In this document: positions 4,546-17,781 of the stretch, one piece after another | How positions within the stretch are numbered: the first letter of the stretch is position 1 | Layout of the letters: each line of letters starts with the position of its first letter | Assembly: GCA_963718915.1 (NCBI GenBank) | Contig: CAVRAI010000004.1 | Coordinates: 1 to 32,000, forward strand | From: an uncultured Chloroflexia bacterium | GTDB taxonomy: Bacteria > Chloroflexota > Ktedonobacteria > Ktedonobacterales > JADMIN01 | Length of the DNA: 32,000 nt | Direction: 5' to 3' | Program-made: the position numbers and the translations under genes | The notes under the pieces: model-generated | Databases searched by the model: none | What the model saw: only the letters and a program-made list of their open reading frames with translations | What the model was told of the DNA's origin: nothing

Positions 4546-4615
4546 CTCACCTCACCCCCTAACCCCCTCTCTCGCGAGGAGAGGGGGAACCAGAGTAGGC
4601 AAAGAGGGGGTTGCA
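4546..4615. repeat. G/C-run hairpin repeat (CCCCCTCTC..GAGAGGGGG type) downstream of the first protease gene
   Basis: CACCCCCTAACCCCCTCTCTCGCGAGGAGAGGGGGAACC..AGAGGGGGTTGC. Related copies lie at 5672-5710 and 9836-9866. Confidence 0.75.
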
Positions 4616-5671: not shown

Positions 5672-5710
5672 ACCTCTCCCCCTACCCCCTCCCCTACGAG
5701 GGGAGGGGCC
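5672..5710. repeat. G/C-run hairpin repeat downstream of the second protease gene
   Basis: CTCTCCCCCTACCCCCTCCCCTACGAGGGGAGGGGCC. Confidence 0.75.
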
Positions 5711-6895: not shown

Positions 6896-8776
6896 ATGAT
6901 ATTCCCCTCGTCGCAGCGCTCCTCCTTTCACGGGCGCAGGCCATCGCCCAATGGCGAAGAAGATCGGCTGACACCGAAGAAAGTCTTCACCGCGCTCGCG
7001 AGTCTGCCGCGCGTGCTGCGGCTCGTCTGGCGCATCTCGCCCATCTTCACGGTGCTGCTGGGCGTGTTGTATATCCTGCAGGGCTTCCTGCCAGCCGCCA
7101 CCGCGTTCATCGCGGGCACACTGGTCGACGCCGTCGTCCACGCGATCCAGTTTCGCGGCGCCAATGGCACGACCACCGTTGTCGTCTGGCTCGTCGTGGC
7201 GCAGTTCAGCATCCAGGGGCTTTCGAGCCTGCTCAGCACCCTCTCGAATATCACTCAGCAACTGCTTCAGGAGCGCGTCTCGCAGCAGGTGCAGCTGCTG
7301 GTGATGGAGAAAGCCAACACGCTTGACCTCTCCTTCTTCGAGGACGCGACATTCTACGATGCGCTGCAGCGGGCGCAGAGTGAGGCGGCGTCGCGGCCCA
7401 CCAGCATGATCTCGCAGACCTTCGGCCTCGGCCAGACCATCGTGACACTGCTCTCGATGATCTTCGTGCTGACCCAGCTCGCCTGGTGGATGGCGCTGGT
7501 CGCGCTGATCGCACCGCTGCCCGCGTTCTTCGCCAGCATGCGCTATGGCTGGTGGGGCTATCAGATGATGCGGCGGCAGTCGCCGCTCCGGCGCGAGATG
7601 AGCTATTACAACAACCTGCTCACCACCGACACCTACAACAAAGAGATCAAGCTCTTCACGCTCGGCGATTTCTTCATCAGGCTCTATCGCACGCTCTCCA
7701 ACCGCTATTATATCGAGGCGCGCAGCATTATCGTCCCGCGCTACCTCGCCGCGTTCTTCTGGGGACTGGGCAGCCTGGTGGTCAACGGTTTTATCTACCT
7801 CTACATCGCACTCCAGACCGTCGCTGGGCATATCACGCTGGGCAAACTGACGTTCTACAGCCAGGCGGCGCTCTCGGTTGGCAACAGCTTCCAGTCGCTG
7901 CTCAGTGGCATCTCCTCGACCTATGAGAACAACCTCTTCATCAATACGCTCTTCGAGTTCCTGGACTACCAGCCGCGCATCGTCAGCCCGCCCAGCGGCC
8001 TCAAGCCCGAAGGCGACGACCTGACCATCGAGTTCCGCGACGTCAGCTTCACCTATCCGGGACGCGAGAGCGCGGGCGCGGCGCTGCGTCATGTGAGCTT
8101 CCGCATCGAGCCGGGCGAGGCCATCGCGCTGGTGGGCCGCAACGGCGCGGGCAAGACCACCATCGTCAAGCTGCTGACGCGGCTCTACGATCCCGACGAG
8201 GGGCAGATTCTGGTCAACGGCCACGATGTCCGCGAGTACGATCTGGCGGCGCTACGCGACCGGATCGGCGTCATTTTCCAGGATTACGTCACCTACTGGC
8301 TGACGGCGTCGCGCAATATCGGCGTCGGCAATATCGCGGAGATAGACGACCAGGAGGGCGTGCGCGTGGCGGCGGGCAAAAGCGGCGCGAGCGCGGTGAT
8401 CGATAAGCTGCCCGATGGCTACGAGACGATGCTGGGCAAGTGGTTCGACGCGGGCCAGCAGCTTTCCGGTGGCGAGTGGCAGAAGATTGCGCTGGCGCGC
8501 GCCTTTATGCGCGACGCGAGCCTGCTGATTCTGGACGAGCCGACCAGCTCGCTCGATCCTCAGGCCGAGTATGAGGTCTTCGCGCGCTTCCGCGAGTTGA
8601 CGCAGGGGAAGTCGGCCATCTTCATCTCGCACCGCTTCAGCACGGTCAGATTAGCGAACCGCATCCTGGTGCTGGAGAACGGCGGCATCCGCGAGAGCGG
8701 CACCCACGAGGAGCTGCTGGCGCTGGAGGGCCGCTACGCCCAGCTGTTCTCGCTCCAGGCCGAGGCGTACCGGTGA
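6896..8776 (+). CDS. ABC transporter, fused permease/ATP-binding exporter (MsbA/type-I exporter-like)
   Basis: About six hydrophobic segments in the N-terminal half. Walker A GRNGAGKTT, signature LSGGEWQKIALARA, Walker B LLILDEPTSSLD and H-loop ISHR are present. The start is ambiguous: ATG 6896 is preferred, and the ORF is open from GTG 6833. Confidence 0.9.
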   Translation: MIFPSSQRSSFHGRRPSPNGEEDRLTPKKVFTALASLPRVLRLVWRISPIFTVLLGVLYILQGFLPAATAFIAGTLVDAVVHAIQFRGANGTTTVVVWLVVAQFSIQGLSSLLSTLSNITQQLLQERVSQQVQLLVMEKANTLDLSFFEDATFYDALQRAQSEAASRPTSMISQTFGLGQTIVTLLSMIFVLTQLAWWMALVALIAPLPAFFASMRYGWWGYQMMRRQSPLRREMSYYNNLLTTDTYNKEIKLFTLGDFFIRLYRTLSNRYYIEARSIIVPRYLAAFFWGLGSLVVNGFIYLYIALQTVAGHITLGKLTFYSQAALSVGNSFQSLLSGISSTYENNLFINTLFEFLDYQPRIVSPPSGLKPEGDDLTIEFRDVSFTYPGRESAGAALRHVSFRIEPGEAIALVGRNGAGKTTIVKLLTRLYDPDEGQILVNGHDVREYDLAALRDRIGVIFQDYVTYWLTASRNIGVGNIAEIDDQEGVRVAAGKSGASAVIDKLPDGYETMLGKWFDAGQQLSGGEWQKIALARAFMRDASLLILDEPTSSLDPQAEYEVFARFRELTQGKSAIFISHRFSTVRLANRILVLENGGIRESGTHEELLALEGRYAQLFSLQAEAYR

Positions 8777-8825
8777 GGGGAGTGATCTGGACGGCGAGCC
8801 AATGGCGTCACCTGTGGCTGTCGGC

Positions 8826-8939
8826 GTGTGACGGGGGATGTGGCGCACAGGGATCCCCAGCGGCTCCAGTTGTGGCCAAATCGTTCAGTTGTGGCCAATA
8901 TCCCAGGGTGGCCATAACTGATGCTGTTGGCCACAACTG
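8826..8939. repeat. Composite repeat: a 38-nt module (GTGTGACGGGGGATGTGGCGCACAGGGATCCCCAGCGG) plus a 73-bp four-box nested palindrome built on CAGTTGTGGCCAA
   Basis: Boxes lie at 8867-8879 and 8886-8898 (CAGTTGTGGCCAA). Their inverted forms lie at 8909-8920 (TGGCCATAACTG) and 8927-8939 (TTGGCCACAACTG). Copies occur again at 9394-9469 and, inverted, at 9963-10035. Confidence 0.85.
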
Positions 8940-9056
8940 GCGCGACGCTCCTACAGTGGCGGTAGTTGCCATCGCCGTGGCCGTGGCCATGAGTAGTATG
9001 GGTCGGAACCGCACGAGAACGCGAATAGAACTGGAACCGGAACAGGAGCTTCTGAT

Positions 9057-9335
9057 ATGACAATGACTCTCGACCAGATGATTGCGGCGCGGCGTTGTCC
9101 GCGCTGTGGGCATGAGCATACCTTAGAAGCCCAGGACGTGGAGGAGACGCTTACAGTGGGGAGTACCGTGGTGCAGGTGTCTGTGCGCGCGGGCGTGTGT
9201 TCGTACTGTGGCGAGCGCGTCTTCGATCCAGTGGCGACGGGTACGATTGATGCCGTCATCCGCGCGGTGCGTGAGGGCGATACCTCCCATCTCGTCCCCG
9301 TGGGACAGGTCTATCGGGTGTCTGAGCCAGTCTGA
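9057..9335 (+). CDS. YgiT-type zinc-ribbon protein (MqsA N-terminal-domain-like, no HTH domain)
   Basis: 92-aa ORF with CPRCG...(35 aa)...CSYCGE spacing and the pattern ..VQVSVRAGVCSYCGERVFD typical of YgiT-type fingers. AGGAG lies 8 nt upstream. The ATG overlaps the stop of a 23-codon upstream ORF (ATGA). Confidence 0.7.
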   Translation: MTMTLDQMIAARRCPRCGHEHTLEAQDVEETLTVGSTVVQVSVRAGVCSYCGERVFDPVATGTIDAVIRAVREGDTSHLVPVGQVYRVSEPV

Positions 9336-9349
9336 GCCAGTCTGAGCCT
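9320..9349. repeat. Tandem decamer GTCTGAGCCA x3 (last copy ends in T)
   Basis: Read directly at 9320-9329, 9330-9339 and 9340-9349. The stop codon of the zinc-ribbon ORF (9333-9335) lies inside the second unit. Confidence 0.9.
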
Positions 9350-9393
9350 GTATTTTGGCTTCTTCCGGCATCTCCTGGCAAGCCGTGATGAGC

Positions 9394-9469
9394 GTGTGAC
9401 GGGGGATGTGGCGCACAGGGATCCCCAGCGGCGTCTGTTGTGGCCAATATCTCAGGTTGGCCACAACTG
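9394..9469. repeat. Second copy of the 38-nt module followed by a minimal two-box hairpin (CTGTTGTGGCCAA-9 nt-TTGGCCACAACTG)
   Basis: 9394-9431 is identical to 8826-8863. The box pair lies at 9435-9447 and 9457-9469. Confidence 0.85.
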
Positions 9470-9546
9470 GAGCATCTCCGCTGGGGTGGCTGCCTGCGGA
9501 ATGTGGACAGGTGGCGAGACCGCTGGCATCAAAGGAATCAACGGCG

Positions 9547-9953
9547 CCAAAGGCGATCACTCTCTGAGGATGATCGTCTTTGAGCGTATTGATCGCCTTT
9601 GATGGGCTGTCCTCTCCCCCGCGCTTGACCACCTCCCGCCCTGCCGCGCTCGGTGTGGTTCAATCCAGCAGCCACCATGCCCGGCCTGTGGACGAGCGCC
9701 GCCACCGCCAGCGCGCCAGCGGATACAGCGGCTACATTCGACATCGCCCTGCTCGATAGCGAGGAGGACGACGAGGGTGACGAGGAGGAAGAGGCCGGAG
9801 GCGACTAAATCCCACGCCACTAGCGCATATTCTGGTTCCCCCTCCCCAAAAAGGGAGGGGGAGAGAGCCACCACGCACGAAGACGATCATCCTCATCAAA
9901 GGCAATCATCCTCAGAGAGTGACTGCCTTCGGTAAACGTTGATCGCCTTTGGT
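9547..9953. repeat. Inverted-repeat pair (9547-9604 vs 9880-9953) enclosing ~275 bp
   Basis: TGAGGATGATCGTCTT (9565-9580) has its exact reverse complement at 9880-9895. TCACTCTCTGAGGATGAT and AAAGGCGATCA/GCCTTTGATG modules are shared in inverted orientation. Confidence 0.75.
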
Positions 9954-9962
9954 GAAGATGAG

Positions 9963-10035
9963 CAATTATGGCCAACATCATCAGTTATGGCCAACCTGGG
10001 ATATTGGCCACTACTGCGTGTGTTGGCCAAAACTG
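9963..10035. repeat. Inverted copy of the 73-bp four-box nested palindrome
   Basis: Boxes lie at 9963-9975, 9982-9994, 10004-10016 and 10023-10035. The central loop CCTGGGATA is the reverse complement of the left-copy loop TATCCCAGG. Confidence 0.85.
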
Positions 10036-10068
10036 TGACAAAACCACCGTCAAAAGCCGACAATTGCC

Positions 10069-11941
10069 CTACTCGACGGTGACGGACTTCGCCAGGTTGC
10101 GCGGCTGATCGATGTCGCAGCCGCGGCGGGTGGCGACGTGATACGCCAGCACCTGTAGCGGGATGACCGCCAGCAGCGGCTCGAACGTTTCAGGAGCGAC
10201 CGGAACCATCATGACATCGTTGGCATGACGGCTAATCTCCCGGTCGCCATCGGTGGCGACGGCGATGACCGGCGCGCCACGCGCCAGCACCTCCTCGACA
10301 TTCGAGATTACCTTCTCATACGTGCGCCCCGCCGTCGCAATCGCGATCAGCGGCGTCTGTGGATCGAGCAGCGCGATAGGCCCGTGCTTCAACTCGCCCG
10401 CCGCGTACGCCTCGGCATGCACATACGAGAGTTCTTTGAGCTTGAGCGCGCCTTCCAGCGCAACGACGCAGGCAGGCCCGCGTCCGATAAACAGGACAAC
10501 TCTGACTCGCCGCCAGCCGCGCGGCAATCGCTTCCAGCGGCCCCTCGGCGCCATCGGGCAGCACATACCGCGCGATGACATCCTCCATCTGGTCGGGAAT
10601 CGCCTGGAGCGCCGCCAGCTCCGCCCGCAGCTCAACCTCGTGCAGCGCGCCGAAGCGCTGGCCGAGCCAGAGACCCGCCATGTACAGCACGGTGGTCGTC
10701 GTCACGAACGTCTTGGTCGCCGTGACGCTGATCTCCGGCCCCGCCTGAAGGTAGAGCACCGCATCGGCGACGCGGGTAATCGCGCTGCCGACGACGTTGG
10801 TGACGGCGACGATAGGCGCGCCGTGCTCCCGCGCCAGCCGTGTTGCGGCGAGTGTATCAGCCGTCTCGCCCGACTGCGCCACCGCGATCACCAGCGTATC
10901 CGGCCCGACAATCGGGTCGGCGTAACGATACTCCGAGGCGACGCATACCTCGACCGGCAGACGCGCCCAGCGCTCGATGGCGTACTTCGCCAGCAGCGCC
11001 GCATGCACCGAGCTACCGCAGCCCAGCAGCGTGATGCGCCGGATGCCATCCAGCGCGCCCGAGGCCGCCAGATGATCCAGCGCGTCTAGCTTCAGCGAGA
11101 GCTTGCCGCCGTCATCCAGCACGCGCCCAAGCAGCGCGCGCCGCAGCGATTGCGGCTGTTCGACGATTTCCTTGACGTAGAAGAAGCGATGGCCGCCCTT
11201 CTCCGCCGACTCGGGATCCCAGTCAACGTGCATGGGTTCGCGCGTGATTGGCTCGCCCGCCAGATTGGTGATGACGACCTCATGCTGGCCGACATCGGCG
11301 ACCTCGCCTTCCTCCAGCACGATGATCTCGCGCGTGTGGCGCAGAATGGCGGGGATATCGGAGGCGATGAAGTTTTCATCCTCGCCTAGCCCGACAATCA
11401 ACGGCCCATTCAGCCGCGCGCCCGCGATATGGCCCGGAAAGCGCCGCGAGACGACCGCGATGGCGTACGAGCCGGTAATGCGCGCCAGGGTATTGCGCAC
11501 CGCCTCGCCGAGCGAGGTTGCCGCTGGCAGCAGGTCTTCGAGCAGGTGGGCCAATACCTCGGTATCAGTCTCCGAGCGGAAGACATGGCCGCGCGCGATC
11601 AGCTCGTCGCGTAGCTCGGCGTAGTTCTCGATGATGCCGTTATGCACCACCGTCACTTCGCCCGTGCAATCGCTATGGGGATGGGCGTTGTCGTCGTTGG
11701 GGCGTCCGTGGGTCGCCCAGCGGGTATGGCCGATGCCAACCGAGCCAGCTGGCTCAATGGTCGCGACGGCGCTCCGCAGATTTTCGAGCTTCCCGGCCGC
11801 TTTGCGTACGTTCAACTCGCCGGTCTCGGAGAGCACAGCGATGCCCGCCGAATCGTAGCCACGATACTCTAACCGACGAAGACCTTCTAGCAGAATAGGG
11901 GTTGCGTTCCTGGCTCCTGTGTATCCAACAATGCCGCACAT
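10069..11941 (-). CDS. glmS: Glutamine--fructose-6-phosphate aminotransferase (isomerising); frame disrupted near nt 10500
   Basis: Starts MCGIVGYTGARNATPILLEGLRRLEYRGYDSAGIAV (Cys2 nucleophile). SIS-domain sequence follows. The C-terminal part continues in ORF 10069..10635 (VVLFIGRGPACVVALEGALKLKELSYVHAEAYAAGELKHGPIALL...NLAKSVTVE). Confidence 0.95.
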
Positions 11942-11969
11942 GGAGGGCATAGTCCTTCCGCAAACCGCC

Positions 11970-12140
11970 ACTGACCGCGTCTTATCCCGGCAGTCGCCCG
12001 CCGTATTTCCCCGCGATCTTGATTAGGGTGGTGGTGTCGCCCACCCTGGAGGCTCCCCGCTGACTGATCCGAACGGCCTCCACCTCGTCAACTGGAACCC
12101 CTCCTGCGTCCCAGCCCATGCGCTATTCATCCGCGCCAAT
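11970..12140 (-). ncRNA. glmS ribozyme-like 5' leader
   Basis: The minus strand upstream of glmS reads ..AAUAGCGCAUGGGCUGGGACGCAGGAGGGGUUCCAGUUGACGAGGUGGAGGCCGUUCGGAUCAGUCAGCGGGGAGCCUCCAGGGUGGGCGACACCACCACCCUAA.. This matches the core as I recall it: AGCGC cleavage-site region, GUUGACGAGGUGGAG, and GG.GCCUCC closing the pseudoknot helix. A GAUCGCG..CGCGGUC peripheral helix follows. Boundaries are approximate. Confidence 0.65.
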
Positions 12141-14744: not shown

Positions 14745-14990
14745 CATGCAATTCAACTAGCAGCAGGAGACTGGCAGGCAGCAGACGTTCTGGCCAATGT
14801 GAGTTCGACTCAGAACGAGACCGGTTGACACTCCCCCGGCTAAAGCACGGGGGATGCTCGGTTCGCCCCCGCAGGTAATCCCGCGAGTCCCCGAAGGGCC
14901 TGCCCGGCCCATTGGATGTTGCGCGCCGCGTTCTCATCGCGGTCTAAGACCAGGCCGCAGGACGTGCAGACGTGGGTGCGCACGCTCAGA
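14745..14990 (-). ncRNA. Candidate TnpB guide (omega/right-end) RNA region
   Basis: Assigned by position only. In IS200/IS605 elements the omega RNA derives from the 3' end of tnpB plus the right end. The hairpin GTTCTGAGTCGAACTCACATTGGCCAGAAC (minus strand, about 14785-14815) is present. No covariance evidence is available. Confidence 0.3.
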
Positions 14991-16010
14991 CTCTTGGGCA
15001 CGCGCGCCCCACAGCCGCTACAGTCCTGGCTGGTGTACTGCGCAGGAACCGCGACCACCCGACGCCCGGCGCATGCTGCCTTGGCTTCGAGGATGGCACG
15101 GAATTGCGCCCAGCCGGCATCCCTGATGCTCTTGGCGAGGTGACGGTTCCGTACCATGTTGGCGACCCGCAAATCTTCGAGATAGATCGTGTCGTAGTCT
15201 CTGAGCAGCCTGAGCGCCGTCTTGTGGTGAAAGTCGGTGCGTTGCCGCTTGACCGTCTGATGCGCCCGCTGGAGGTGGCCCACCGCCTTGCGGCGGCGAT
15301 GGCTGCCCTTCTTGCGCTTGGAAACGCGCCGCTGCGGCCTTGGCGAGCCTCTTCTCGCCCCGGCGATAGTGGCGCGGGTTCTCGACCGCCTCGCCATCCG
15401 CCGTGATGAGGAACACTTTCAAGCCGACATCAATGCCCGTCTCGCGTCCGGTGGGTGGGAGTGGCTGGGCTGGCACGTCGGCGCACGAGATGATGGCGTA
15501 CCAGCCATCGGCTTCGTGGGAGATGGTGACGGTTTTGGGCGTGCCTTCGAGGGGGCGGCTCCAGCGGACGGCGATACGGCCAATCTTGGACAGCACAAGG
15601 CAGCCGTTCTCTGGTGATCCCTCCAGCCGCGCACCGTTGCCATACTGCTTGTAGGTGAAGGAGTGGTAGCGGTTGCGCCCTTGGAAGCGCGGGAAGCCAG
15701 GGGTCTTCCCTTCCTGCAGGCGGCGGAAGAATGCCTGATACGTCTTATCAAGCCGGGCGAGCACATCCTGCAAGACCTGGGAGTGGATGGCCGCATAGTC
15801 GGGGAATGCCGCTTTCAGGTCGGGCAACTCGCCTTGCTGCTGATAGCAGGTGAGCGTGACGCCACGCTGCGCATACACGAACTTGTGCTGCTCTAATGCC
15901 GTGTTGTAGAGCATGCGACAGCGCCATAAGGTCAGCTCCAACTGGCGCGCCTGTTCGGGCGTCGGTCGGAGTTTGTACTTGTAGGCTTTGCGAACGCTCT
16001 CATCACTCAC
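14840..16010 (-). CDS. tnpB: IS605 OrfB/TnpB family RNA-guided endonuclease; frame disrupted near nt 15335
   Basis: The N-terminal part reads KAYKYKLRPTPEQARQLELTLWRCRMLYNTALE..GIDVGLKVFLITADGEAVENPRHYR (RuvC-I D). It continues in ORF 14840..15397 with QRRVSKRKKGS..DFHHKTALRLLRDYDTIYLEDL (RuvC-II E), zinc finger CSGCG..CTSCG, and DRDENAARNI (RuvC-III D). Confidence 0.9.
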
Positions 16011-16039
16011 GGCTAGCTCTCTGGCGAACTACTGGCGAA

Positions 16040-16430
16040 CTACTGGCGGCTTTGCGCCTCAATGTAGCGTTGGATGATTTCGCTACTGACGTTTCCGGCG
16101 GTGCTGATGAAGTACGAGCGCGTCCAGAGCGAGGGCATCCGCTTCAGCGCGGGAAACTCTTCGCGGAGGAGTCGCGAGCTACGCCCTTTCATCAGACGCG
16201 GGATGTCGGTTGGCAGCGTGTAGGGGTTGGCGCGAAGGAACAGATGCACATGGTCAGGCTGAATCGCCAGCCGAATCACCTGCCAGTGACGCTCTTCAGC
16301 TACCTCATGGATAATCGTCGCCAGCCGATCATGGATCGGATCCGTTCAGGACTTTGCGCCGTCGCTTGGGACACCAAATGACGTGGTAGACCACCAAGTG
16401 GACGCTGTGATGTTCGTGTTGATAGTCCAT
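16040..16430 (-). CDS. tnpA: IS200/IS605 family Y1 (HUH) transposase; frame disrupted near nt 16340
   Basis: MDYQHEHHSVHLVVYHVIWCPKRRRKVL. After a 1-nt shift it reads IHDRLATIIHEVAEERHWQVIRLAIQPDHVHLFL (HUH motif) ...SLWTRSYFISTAGNVSSEIIQRYIE (catalytic Tyr region). Confidence 0.9.
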
Positions 16431-16579
16431 GTTGACAGTAGACCACATGGCAACATGGTTAGCTAGGCGAGAGGGCCATTCATCCCCACTTGAAAGACGG
16501 GGGGCTTTCTGGCCCGTTTCTGTAATACCAATGCCTACACCTTGAGTGCCACCGGCTCGCGTATCCCGCAATACTATCT

Positions 16580-17781
16580 TCACGGTCGTGGGCGTTTGGC
16601 GCGTTGGGCGGCGGCAACCTGTTCATCGGGCGGCACGAATGTCGCCTGGAAGCGCGCGCGATAGTCCGGGAAAGTCCCTTCGAGCAGCGCCTGGCGCGCA
16701 CCCTCCATCAGACGGATCAGGAAACGCAGGTTGTGGATGCTGGCGAGGCGGTAGTAGAGCAGCTCGCCACGGCTGTCGTCATCTTCGGCGCGGATGAGGT
16801 GGTGCAGGTAGCCCGCGCTGAACGTCCGGCAGGTGTAGCAGTCGCAGGTGGGGTCAATCGGCCCGGTCTCCTCGCGGAAGCGCGCCCCCCGCAGATTGAC
16901 GCGCCCGGTTGGCGTGTAGAGTCCGCCAGTGCGTGCGGTGCGTGTGGGCAGCACGCAGTCGAACATGTCGATGCCGCGCGCGACGCCTTCGAGCAGGTCA
17001 TCCGGCGAGCCAACCCCCAGCAGATGGCGCGGCTTGCCATCGGGTAGCTCGGGAACGGCGGCTTCGAGCATGCGCCACATCAGCGCTTTCGGCTCCCCCA
17101 CAGAGAGGCCACCAATCGAGATGCCGTCGAAGGGCAGCGAGCCGATGAACCGGGCGCTCTCGGCGCGCAAGTCGGGATCCATGCCGCCCTGGGGGATGCC
17201 GAACAGCGCCTGATCGGGGCGTACTCTGGCGGCCAGTGCGCGCTCGGCCCAGCGGTGCGTGCGCTCAGTAGCGCGGCGTGTCTCATCGGGCGCCGCGCCA
17301 TACGGCGGGCATTCATCCAGTGGCAGGATGATATCGGCGCCCAGCAGCGCCTCGATCTCCATCACGCGCTCCGGCGTCAGCGTCACCTCCGCGCCGTCCA
17401 GATGCGAGCGGAAGCGCACGCCGTCGTCGCTCACCTCGCGCAGCTTGCCCAGGCTGAAGACCTGAAAGCCACCGCTATCGGTCAGAATCGGGTGTGGCCA
17501 GCGCATGAAGCCGTGCAGCCCGCCGAAGCGCGCTACCAGTTCTGGCCCAGGGCGGAGCAGCAGGTGATAGGTATTGGAGAGGATGATGCTCGCGCCGATG
17601 GCCTCCAGATCGTCCGGCCCAACCGCCTTGACGGTGGCGTGCGTGCCGACCGGCATGAAAACCGGCGTGGGGATGTCGCCGTGCGGCGTATGGACGATGC
17701 CCGCGCGGGCGGCGGTCTTGGCGCAGCGCGCGGTAATCTCGAAGGAGAGCGCGGCGGATTCGAGTTGGAGGTCGGATGCAT
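16580..17781 (-). CDS. tgt: Queuine tRNA-ribosyltransferase; likely 1-nt indel just after the ATG (about 17778)
   Basis: FMPVGTHATVKAV, ILSNTYHL, TDSGGFQVFSLG, LDEC, GGLSVGEP and the zinc site CDCYTC..H are all present. The in-frame upstream segment SFEITARCAKTAARAGIVHTPHGDIPTPVF has no start codon. An ATG at 17781 lies in an adjacent frame. Confidence 0.95.

Follow-up and report, generated by a model that had tools for sequence, protein, structure and literature searches.

Genomic context and features of the segment

The window analysed here is a stretch of 32,000 nucleotides from an uncultured Chloroflexia bacterium of the order Ktedonobacterales (contig CAVRAI010000004.1, positions 1 to 32,000), and the subject of this study is the segment between the convergent 3' ends of its ABC exporter gene and glmS (8826–10035), which is occupied by an array of homologous 73-nt double-stem hairpin modules that is specific to the lineage and to this one locus. 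An original prediction, made from the sequence alone, had named both neighbours correctly and had also recognised the open reading frame (ORF) of 92 aa lying among the modules as a YgiT-type zinc ribbon, an assignment confirmed by a match above the cut-off of NCBIfam family TIGR03831. The features of the segment are collected in Table 1.

Table 1. Features between the ABC exporter gene and glmS, with the accompanying hairpin families (positions are those of the window unless a locus is named; bits are covariance model scores on the strand given, except for TIGR03831)
Feature	Position	Strand	Remarks
MFS transporter C-terminal tail remnant (LDGEPMASPVAVGV*)	8790–8831	+	directly past the ABC exporter stop
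Module A, copy 1 (MFS stop codon and 3' flank)	8824–8864	+	exact 41-nt repeat
P1-L: type-1 boxes CAGTTGTGGCCA, loop AUAUCCCAGGG	8867–8939	sense +	85.9 bits (+), 57.8 (−)
CAGTTGTGGCCAA boxes, left copy	8867, 8886; 8908, 8927	+; −	0–2 mismatches
YgiT-type zinc-ribbon ORF, 92 aa	9057–9335	+	TIGR03831, 26.7 bits
Three tandem GTCTGAGCCA copies overlapping the end of the zinc-ribbon ORF	9320–9351	+	from comparison with L147 and L150
Module A, copy 2 (direct duplicate of copy 1)	9392–9432	+	exact 41-nt repeat
P1-M: two-box, single-stem type-1 derivative	9435–9469	sense +	model match 9426–9483, 39.1 bits (+), 20.8 (−)
CAGTTGTGGCCAA boxes, two-box hairpin	9435; 9457	+; −	0–2 mismatches
P2-L: type-2 boxes CAAAGGCGATCA, loop CUCUCUGAGGA	9530–9601	sense +	fold z = −8.0; 65.4 bits (+), 43.9 (−)
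Small acidic candidate ORF (51 aa with the GTG start, 43 aa with the ATG start at 9677)	9653–9808	+	between the type-2 modules
Generic hairpin CCCCCTCCCC-AAAAA-GGGAGGGGG	9838–9865		dispersed terminator-like family, unrelated to the 73-nt modules
P2-R: type 2	9878–9951	sense −	67.0 bits (−), 40.6 (+)
P1-R: type 1, glmS direction	9963–10035	sense −	79.2 bits (−), 50.6 (+)
CAGTTGTGGCCAA boxes, right copy	9963, 9982; 10004, 10023	+; −	0–2 mismatches
Terminator-like hairpin: last glmS codons and 33-nt spacer, then GGUUUUGU	10036–10095	−	RNA fold −23.4 kcal/mol, z = −3.0
glmS, anchor gene of the locus	10069–11971	−	+1 frameshift near 10,494–10,498
Generic CCCCTCCCC hairpin sites	4564–4586, 5686–5708, 9839–9860		many also in L003, L007, L009, L140, L142 and L157
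AATGGCYCTC...GAGRGCCATT hairpin	L007 2880–2990; L009 3092–3150; L142 6950–7008; L157 1342–1400		

Searching the window for the type-1 13-mer CAGTTGTGGCCAA with 0–2 mismatches returned ten copies, all of them where the original prediction had placed them, and outside the array just one two-mismatch match was found in the 32 kb (17537), all remaining matches having three mismatches. At up to three mismatches there are 24 matches against 6.8 expected, a number reached by none of 100 shuffles, and the predicted boxes, their spacing and the two-box hairpin are borne out. The arms at 8867–8939 and 9963–10035 are 85% complementary, with 1023 nt between them, and folded as single strands the copies greatly outperform their shuffles, with z between −4.4 and −8.0 (left copy −7.4, two-box hairpin −5.0, right copy −4.4). 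Nested within this type-1 pair, and overlooked in the original prediction, is a second box family, CAAAGGCGATCA, which has the same layout and occurs at 9530–9601 and 9878–9951, the 11-nt loops of its two copies being mutually reverse complementary. Across the family the natural register is a 12-nt box, a 7-nt spacer and an 11-nt loop, so that of the proposed fold (two stacked stems separated by a 6x6 internal loop) the stems were retained while the register had to be corrected to 12-nt boxes and a 7x7 loop.

The duplicated block preceding the left and middle copies, module A, was likewise correctly spotted as a duplication but is longer than the 38 nt given to it: the identity is exact over 41 nt (8824–8864 and 9392–9432) and amounts to 95% over 56 nt. 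The GGGGAT/ATCCCC hairpin proposed inside it folds no better than chance (z = +0.14).

Structure and covariation of the modules

All full modules share the fixed geometry 12-7-12-11-12-7-12 (73 nt, with single-base length changes now and then), that is, a 12-bp outer helix, an open 7x7 internal loop, a 12-bp inner helix and an 11-nt terminal loop. This geometry is filled by at least four box sequences (CAGTTGTGGCCA, CAAAGGCGATCA, CGTACTTGAGCA/CAAACTTGCTCA and CATACTTGGTCA) with the common pattern CA....TG..CA. The module alignment comprises 18 sequences, and the covariance model was built from 14 copies. RNAalifold independently predicts precisely two 12-bp helices; pairing is kept in 94.6% of cells, and double (compensatory) changes are seen in 17 of 24 pairs, values matched by none of 500 shuffles. 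When the pairing partner is slid by 1–3 columns, only 21–43% of positions remain paired. The outer and inner helices may diverge in sequence from each other, each still being paired (e.g., P3 of L009 and P3' of L007).

The unpaired parts of the modules are no less regular. Spacers that face each other in the internal loop are Watson-Crick complementary at 30% of positions, as opposed to about 94% pairing in the boxes, and their composition is asymmetric, the 5' spacer being C-rich and the 3' spacer containing 48 G and 9 C with the rough consensus ATGATGT. On one strand the terminal loop has the conserved motif YUYUCYCAGGR, and with the covariance model each copy scores about 10–30 bits higher on the strand that carries this motif. 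The suggestion that these are sites recognised as folded single strands is supported by stem covariation, the unpaired internal loop and a loop conserved on one strand.

Outer and inner boxes of one module agree at 10.4 of 12 positions, compared with 7.3 of 12 between modules, and nested pairing is indistinguishable from a slipped one (box 1 with box 3 and box 2 with box 4), the paired fractions being 93.5% and 92.6%, respectively.

Distribution of the module family

The type-1 hairpin pattern was scanned across 185,579 species genomes, giving 12 matches, one per species genome, of which three are real (L003, L007 and L009); all three lie in Chloroflexota metagenome-assembled genomes, just downstream of glmS. 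Contigs DASUHD010000027, DATBIB010000011 and CAVPDP010000014 are from module-bearing assemblies. Collecting GlmS homologues and their contigs yielded more module-bearing loci (L142–L144 and L157/L158), and a generic four-box scan followed by the covariance model identified 22 modules in six Ktedonobacterales-like genome versions (the window, L003, L007, L009, L142 and L157), every one of them located between glmS and its convergent neighbour. The model found no match in the rest of about 170 kb (168 kb) of sequence from module-bearing and related loci, which are loci and not whole genomes, and none in 612 kb of unrelated high-GC control loci; plasmid, phage and viral-contig collections contained no real match either. 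A metagenome scan with a DNA pattern for the glmS 3' end returned 120 loci, none closely related, which served as negative controls, and the four-box matches seen in two of the control loci (L057 and L080) were rejected as weak, GC-rich chance palindromes. Against the Rfam covariance models (E <= 1) the modules match microRNA families only, at E = 0.1–0.7, i.e., by chance, and no description of the module family was found in the literature searched.

Several close relatives carry no modules. These include three groups of loci whose GlmS is 88–91% identical to that of the window (L133–L136, L137–L139 and L140–L141) and L156, whose GlmS comes from the 90%-identity cluster of the window's closest match. 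Merely a plain terminator hairpin is present behind glmS in L133, L140/L141 and L156, and the convergent glmS and MFS transporter genes of L133 end within about 100 bp of each other, leaving what is effectively an empty site. Presence/absence polymorphism among relatives, proposed as a test of mobility, is therefore found, with modules present in some loci and absent from sister lineages. The idea of a dispersed mobile family is nevertheless not supported: related copies exist, yet all are confined to one locus, nor do they always flank a small cargo gene, since L007 and L142 have hairpins with no gene between them. Judging from these comparisons, the family is restricted to a small group of soil Chloroflexota and appears to have multiplied solely in the gap behind glmS.

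The gene facing the glmS 3' end varies among close relatives (L133, L137, L140, L142, L156 and the window), where an MFS transporter, a PPDK-like protein, an NYN-domain protein, a 2-oxoglutarate dehydrogenase, an AAA kinase or an ABC exporter is encoded. The 3' side of glmS is a recurrent synteny breakpoint.

Orientation of the modules

With the sense strand of a module assigned from its loop motif alone, all 22 modules of the six genome versions are sense to the nearer flanking gene: those on the glmS side are sense to glmS, while those on the far side are sense to the MFS transporter, ABC exporter or zinc-ribbon gene. Drawn with glmS at the right, the order is + + + / − − in the window and in L142, + + / − − − in L009, + + / − − in L157, + / − in L007 and a single − in L003. 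Eight of the 22 oriented modules lie outside the training set of the model, one of which (P4-R of L009) is identical in sequence to a training copy (P4-L). Genes located inside the arrays, such as the zinc-ribbon gene of the window and L157 and the P-loop kinase gene of L009, are co-oriented with the adjacent modules.

Inverted pairs of the same type span the meeting point of the two sets in the window (types 1 and 2), in L009 (type 4) and in L142 and L157 (types 1 and 3). The inverted 73-bp copies that had been taken to bracket a cassette do exist, but they are two of the five copies in the window and probably not the ends of an element; they look like inverted terminal repeats because the modules fall into two opposing sets, either of which is sense to its own flanking gene. 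The orientation rule alone is sufficient to explain the inverted pair of the window, which probably marks no element boundary. The similarity of the 1023-nt spacing of type 1 in the window to the 1022-nt spacing of type 4 in L009 was considered and set aside as a coincidence, other same-type pairs being 296–614 nt apart.

glmS and the other hairpins of the locus

In the window, glmS is split into overlapping ORFs (10316–11971 and 10069–10635) by an apparent +1 insertion on the minus strand, the window reading AGTCAGAGTTGTCCTG at the frameshift where L007 reads AGCCAGAGCGCCCTC; the gene is either a pseudogene or the product of an assembly error. Upstream of it, at 11,963–12,135 on the minus strand, lies a glmS ribozyme (Rfam RF00234, 57.4 bits, E = 9e-12), the sole Rfam family above threshold. 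The terminator-like hairpin at the glmS 3' end has a U-rich tail and the same fold forms in L003, where the 33-nt spacer is identical to that of the window at 30 of 33 positions, which is above the conservation of the coding sequence. An orthologue of P1-R is present in L003 at an equal distance from glmS, and P1-R together with the spacer is 87% identical between the two loci, compared with 83% for the adjoining glmS coding sequence.

A dispersed generic hairpin of the form CCCCTCCCC-N4-6-GGGGAGGGG is found in many intergenic regions of the lineage, including directly behind glmS in the module-free loci L133 and L156, and looks like the ordinary terminator or a REP-like hairpin of the lineage. 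Another hairpin, AATGGCYCTC...GAGRGCCATT with the leader CATCCAATCCAC, accompanies glmS-side type-3 and type-4 modules and is not in the window. The region 9470–9960 has no counterpart in related loci, save for a short generic CCCCTCCCC hairpin at 9831–9876. The candidate ORF within it (…LLDSEEDDEGDEEEEAGGD) is very acidic with high third-position GC, and it has no Pfam or NCBIfam match.

The zinc-ribbon gene and the history of the locus

The zinc-ribbon protein scores above the TIGR03831 (YgiT_finger) cut-off of 20.2 bits and weakly matches the Pfam MqsA_antitoxin family, and it consists of the zinc-ribbon half alone, with no helix-turn-helix domain. The segment that carries its gene (8979–9341) is 89% identical to L157 and is flanked by two direct copies of module A with a type-1 hairpin. 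We read the gene as a lone toxin-antitoxin relic (an antitoxin domain) that probably became lodged among the modules and is not part of the hairpin family, because its homologues elsewhere sit in unrelated contexts without hairpin modules and one of them (L147) has a 44-aa ORF directly upstream, which matches no NCBIfam family and is possibly a toxin remnant. Compared with L147 and L150, the ancestral stop codon TAG of the ORF is now GAG and the 10-mer GTCTGAGCCA is present three times through expansion. The protein ends in 'SEPV', which had suggested a common origin with the MFS tail of L007 but is explained by this TAG-to-GAG change and slippage of the 10-mer.

Sequence homologous to module A follows the MFS stop codon in L007, L009 and L142 and is always succeeded by a type-1 hairpin. 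Comparison of the loci shows that the ancestral convergent neighbour was an MFS transporter gene, in the place of which the window now has the ABC exporter gene and a remnant of the MFS tail. The last ~14 MFS codons are retained past the ABC exporter stop, their frame-0 translation (8790–8831) matching the MFS C-termini of L007 and L009, and a similar remnant is found in L142 (7745–7810), the body of the MFS gene having been deleted. A tail of 14–20 codons has thus outlived its gene in two genomes with similar, not identical, deletion endpoints, and may belong to a retained unit.

The modules themselves would have spread by local duplication, and whole 73-nt units would have been replaced or converted block-wise. 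Such unit-wise conversion is suggested because P4-L and P4-R of L009 are 100% identical over exactly 73 nt with unrelated flanks, and because the orthologous slot after module A and its type-1 trailer holds a different type in each of three loci (window, type 2; L157, type 3; L009, type 4). L009 and L157 share the flank around that slot, which the window retains in part. Three-box and two-box forms of the module also occur and could have arisen through deletion between direct boxes. The zinc-ribbon gene of the window and the kinase gene of L009 would be chance occupants of a rapidly changing site, and no gene at all is present there in L007 and L142.

Comparison with known systems

The closest analogues are the REP/BIME elements, which are similar in where they lie, how they cluster and the RNA role presumed for them, and, in geometry, the T7-type RNase III hairpins, whereas integron attC sites and FRT are formal look-alikes. 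Like the REP/BIME/REPIN sequences of E. coli and Pseudomonas, the modules are clustered extragenic imperfect palindromes that lie between convergent genes in both orientations, with linker hairpins mixed in, REP/BIME elements being presumed stabilisers or terminators of mRNA 3' ends. In contrast with REP families, which comprise tens to hundreds of dispersed copies and a RAYT, the modules occupy one locus and no RAYT was seen in the window; their arm is a direct repeat of a 12-nt box instead of a small palindrome, they have no GTAG or CGTC tag, and several box types share one strict 73-nt geometry with a conserved loop. Hairpins of the T7 RNase III type (R1.1 class) also consist of two helices of about one turn, an internal loop and a capping loop, are placed between or after cistrons, and share their geometry and not their sequence. 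Cleavage of those hairpins in their own internal loop leaves a protective 3' hairpin, the comparison with the modules being one of anatomy alone, and the modules differ in having a larger, symmetric 7x7 loop, helices of the same sequence and a conserved terminal loop. They are not intrinsic terminators, since the terminator scan found no GC-rich hairpin with a U tract in them.

Integron attC sites resemble the modules in being variable in sequence and conserved in structure; in both, two boxes pair, a central spacer stays unpaired and a loop caps the end, one strand is the one read, and small promoter-less genes lie alongside. In the modules, however, the boxes within an arm are direct whereas those of attC are inverted, and the modules face each other with no integron integrase, unlike attC sites, which point one way beside intI. 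Among the 18 modules, type 1 contains GTTGTGG/GTTATGG, with T and not a purine at position 5, and types 2–4 have no GTT or AAC ends. The attC identity raised in the original prediction is not supported (no consensus boxes, opposing sites, no integrase among the scanned larger ORFs of the window or the called genes of related loci), and the shared arrangement of two paired boxes and an unpaired spacer is a resemblance in possible working, not membership.

The other candidates it named, IS200/IS605 or PATE ends, fare no better, given that copies are not dispersed and that the window contains a resident IS200/IS605 element with different end hairpins. This element (14,840–16,583, minus strand) ends in TCCCCCG...CGGGGGA and ATCCCCAC...CGGGGGG, hairpins of the CCCCCG...CGGGGG type that are unlike the boxes; its tnpB is split (15018–16010 and 14840–15397), as is its Y1 tnpA (16040–16279 and 16329–16583), and relatives have no insertion between YceI and TGT, where it is located in the window. 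A 10-nt match between module A and an end hairpin of the element is within chance expectation.

FRT and heterospecific lox sites resemble the modules in their 12–13-bp elements (two direct ones, an asymmetric polarity-setting spacer and inverted ones), in spacers common to pairs of the same type and in the existence of three-element forms. The central spacer of the modules is 11 nt and not 8, their elements are 7 nt apart and not 1, and neither a recombinase gene nor recombination products were seen. A Tn7-like element at attTn7 would also lie directly downstream of glmS and end in repeated boxes, but it is excluded by gene content and end structure: the ends of Tn7 are one-way arrays of TnsB sites while the boxes of the modules form palindromes; there is no tnsABCD/tniQ, no 5'-TGT terminus and no 5-bp duplication (GGCTC vs TGACA). 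The inner spacer common to P1-L and P1-R (ATGCTGT and ATGATGT), considered as a sign of transposon ends, is simply the 3'-spacer consensus of the whole family. Two further motifs were set aside, namely a CsrA-type GGA loop (GGG or GGU is found in type-1 loops, and long stems carry loops of 11 nt) and CATCCTG in the antisense loops, which resembles the MOBP relaxase nick motif but is treated as chance, being wrongly placed with respect to the stem and unaccompanied by a relaxase.

Interpretation of the modules

We consider with moderate confidence that the modules act as folded RNA on transcripts leaving the flanking genes. This is favoured because pairing is conserved, the internal loop stays open, the loop and spacers are strand-specific, G-U pairs are tolerated on the sense strand and the orientation is tied to the genes. 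The folded modules would serve as backstop barriers, as hairpins protecting 3' ends or as RNase III-type processing hairpins, and the conserved terminal loop would contact some factor. As an overall explanation, transcript-level 3' hairpins spread by local duplication and unit-wise conversion is the best of those examined, although we hold it tentatively and would not be surprised to see it replaced.

A number of observations weigh against it. On the sense strand 19 G-U pairs stand against 9 A-C pairs, and in 15 of 18 modules the sense RNA folds more stably than its antisense, yet the G-U excess is modest (p about 0.04) and partly due to common descent. A terminator-like hairpin (10036–10095) stands between glmS and the first module of the window, and a generic terminator hairpin has the same position in L009 and L142, so that, barring promoters of their own, the modules would be reached by read-through transcription alone; a terminator scan of 8600–10200 found no terminator-like site, and the modules have no U tract. 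The near-identity of the outer and inner boxes is not needed for a simple RNA hairpin and is a better fit to protein sites or to homogenisation at the DNA level, and fourfold box identity is not explained by such a hairpin. The arms of a palindrome can also stay complementary through template switching of DNA without selection, and opposing sets would also survive inversion between oppositely oriented sites, making them compatible with a DNA inversion system.

The last point leads to the strongest alternative, a less probable one that still deserves serious attention, in which the modules are DNA recombination or transposition sites (REPIN/RAYT-, attC- or FRT-like) read as folded strands or cruciforms by an unlinked enzyme, same-type pairs being heterospecific partners between which small cassettes are inverted or excised. 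Loops are indeed shared by same-type partners (11/11 positions for type 2, 10/11 for type 1, and 73/73 over the whole module for type 4 of L009); module A and the type-1 hairpin are directly repeated around the zinc-ribbon gene with a 41-nt exact core reminiscent of attL/attR; three-box forms recall FRT; the genes between modules vary by strain; the near-identical outer and inner boxes are like repeated binding sites; and a perfect 73-nt copy with unrelated flanks suggests a mobile unit. An IS200/IS605 tnpA lies 5–6 kb away, but both tnpA and tnpB of that element are frameshifted and its end hairpins differ, and no integrase, invertase or intact transposase was found among the scanned larger ORFs of the window or the called genes of related loci. 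The family is moreover confined to one locus, its flanks show no target-site duplication (GGCTC and TGACA), near-identical strains display no inversion or excision polymorphism, and in L007 and L142 the modules have no cargo. Neither of the attC motifs, R'' (RYYYAAC) or R' (GTTRRRY), is present, nor are the conserved extrahelical bases, and the 11-nt centre exceeds the 6–8 bp overlap typical for tyrosine recombinases. That the modules are heterospecific sites of an undescribed kind, with the loop as crossover or recognition core and the fourfold boxes as address labels, seems quite improbable. If true, an unlinked enzyme would shuffle, invert and capture small genes at a glmS hotspot in the manner of an integron or shufflon, and this would be a cassette system attached to no known integrase family.

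Two other explanations we regard as slightly less credible still, and equally so. According to the first, the modules are polar or structural elements of duplex or cruciform DNA in a zone of convergence, either BIME-like clusters for gyrase or nucleoid proteins or Ter-like barriers. Their convergent location, clustering, mixed orientations and linker hairpins are BIME-like, two opposed polar groups are the layout of a replication fork trap, and gene orientation converges here; beyond this layout, nothing positive speaks for it. The GC skew does not switch at the locus, for which reason a replication terminus or fork trap was dropped; stem covariation and an obligatorily open internal loop are not expected of duplex-binding sites, several box types would demand several proteins, and BIMEs are dispersed in hundreds while the module family is found at one locus. 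According to the second, the modules have no function and form a self-perpetuating palindrome cluster produced by replication slippage and template switching in an intergenic gap that can be dispensed with, complementarity being kept mechanically. Sister lineages without modules show no visible cost, the modules change quickly in number and type, some have decayed to two or three boxes, and boxes are homogenised within a module. Template switching would, however, make the spacers and the loop complementary too, whereas the ~20 copies all keep the 7x7 open loop, the 73-nt geometry, the strand-specific loop and a C-poor 3' spacer, their orientation is never random, and in the comparison with L003 P1-R and its spacer outconserve the adjacent glmS coding sequence.

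The four-site operator for a dimeric DNA-binding regulator, perhaps the zinc-ribbon protein itself, that the original prediction had offered is very unlikely: four similar boxes in a symmetric layout speak for it, as does the relationship of the zinc-ribbon domain to the MqsA family, which includes DNA-binding antitoxins, but the 92-aa protein has no helix-turn-helix domain, modules occur without the gene (L007, L009 and L142) and homologues of the gene without modules, at least four box specificities coexist in one intergenic region with orthologous positions differing in box type, and inner pairs covary independently of outer ones, in the manner of helices.

Conclusion

In conclusion, the modules behind glmS are rated here as a family of extragenic structured palindromes with unusual single-locus, multi-type box and orientation properties, and they constitute a clean, well-supported structured element, known from about 20 copies that covary strongly and keep the internal loop obligatorily open. 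Their strict orientation, their confinement to a single locus and their fourfold box identity are unusual among extragenic palindromes. Opposing sets of oriented hairpins between convergent genes are enough to mimic a cassette bounded by inverted terminal repeats, which calls for caution in automated searches for mobile elements. The modules are also a tractable test case for RNA versus DNA action, and for the block-wise copying or conversion of palindromic units. If the terminal loop binds a specific factor, the family would represent a new cis-element in a poorly studied soil phylum.

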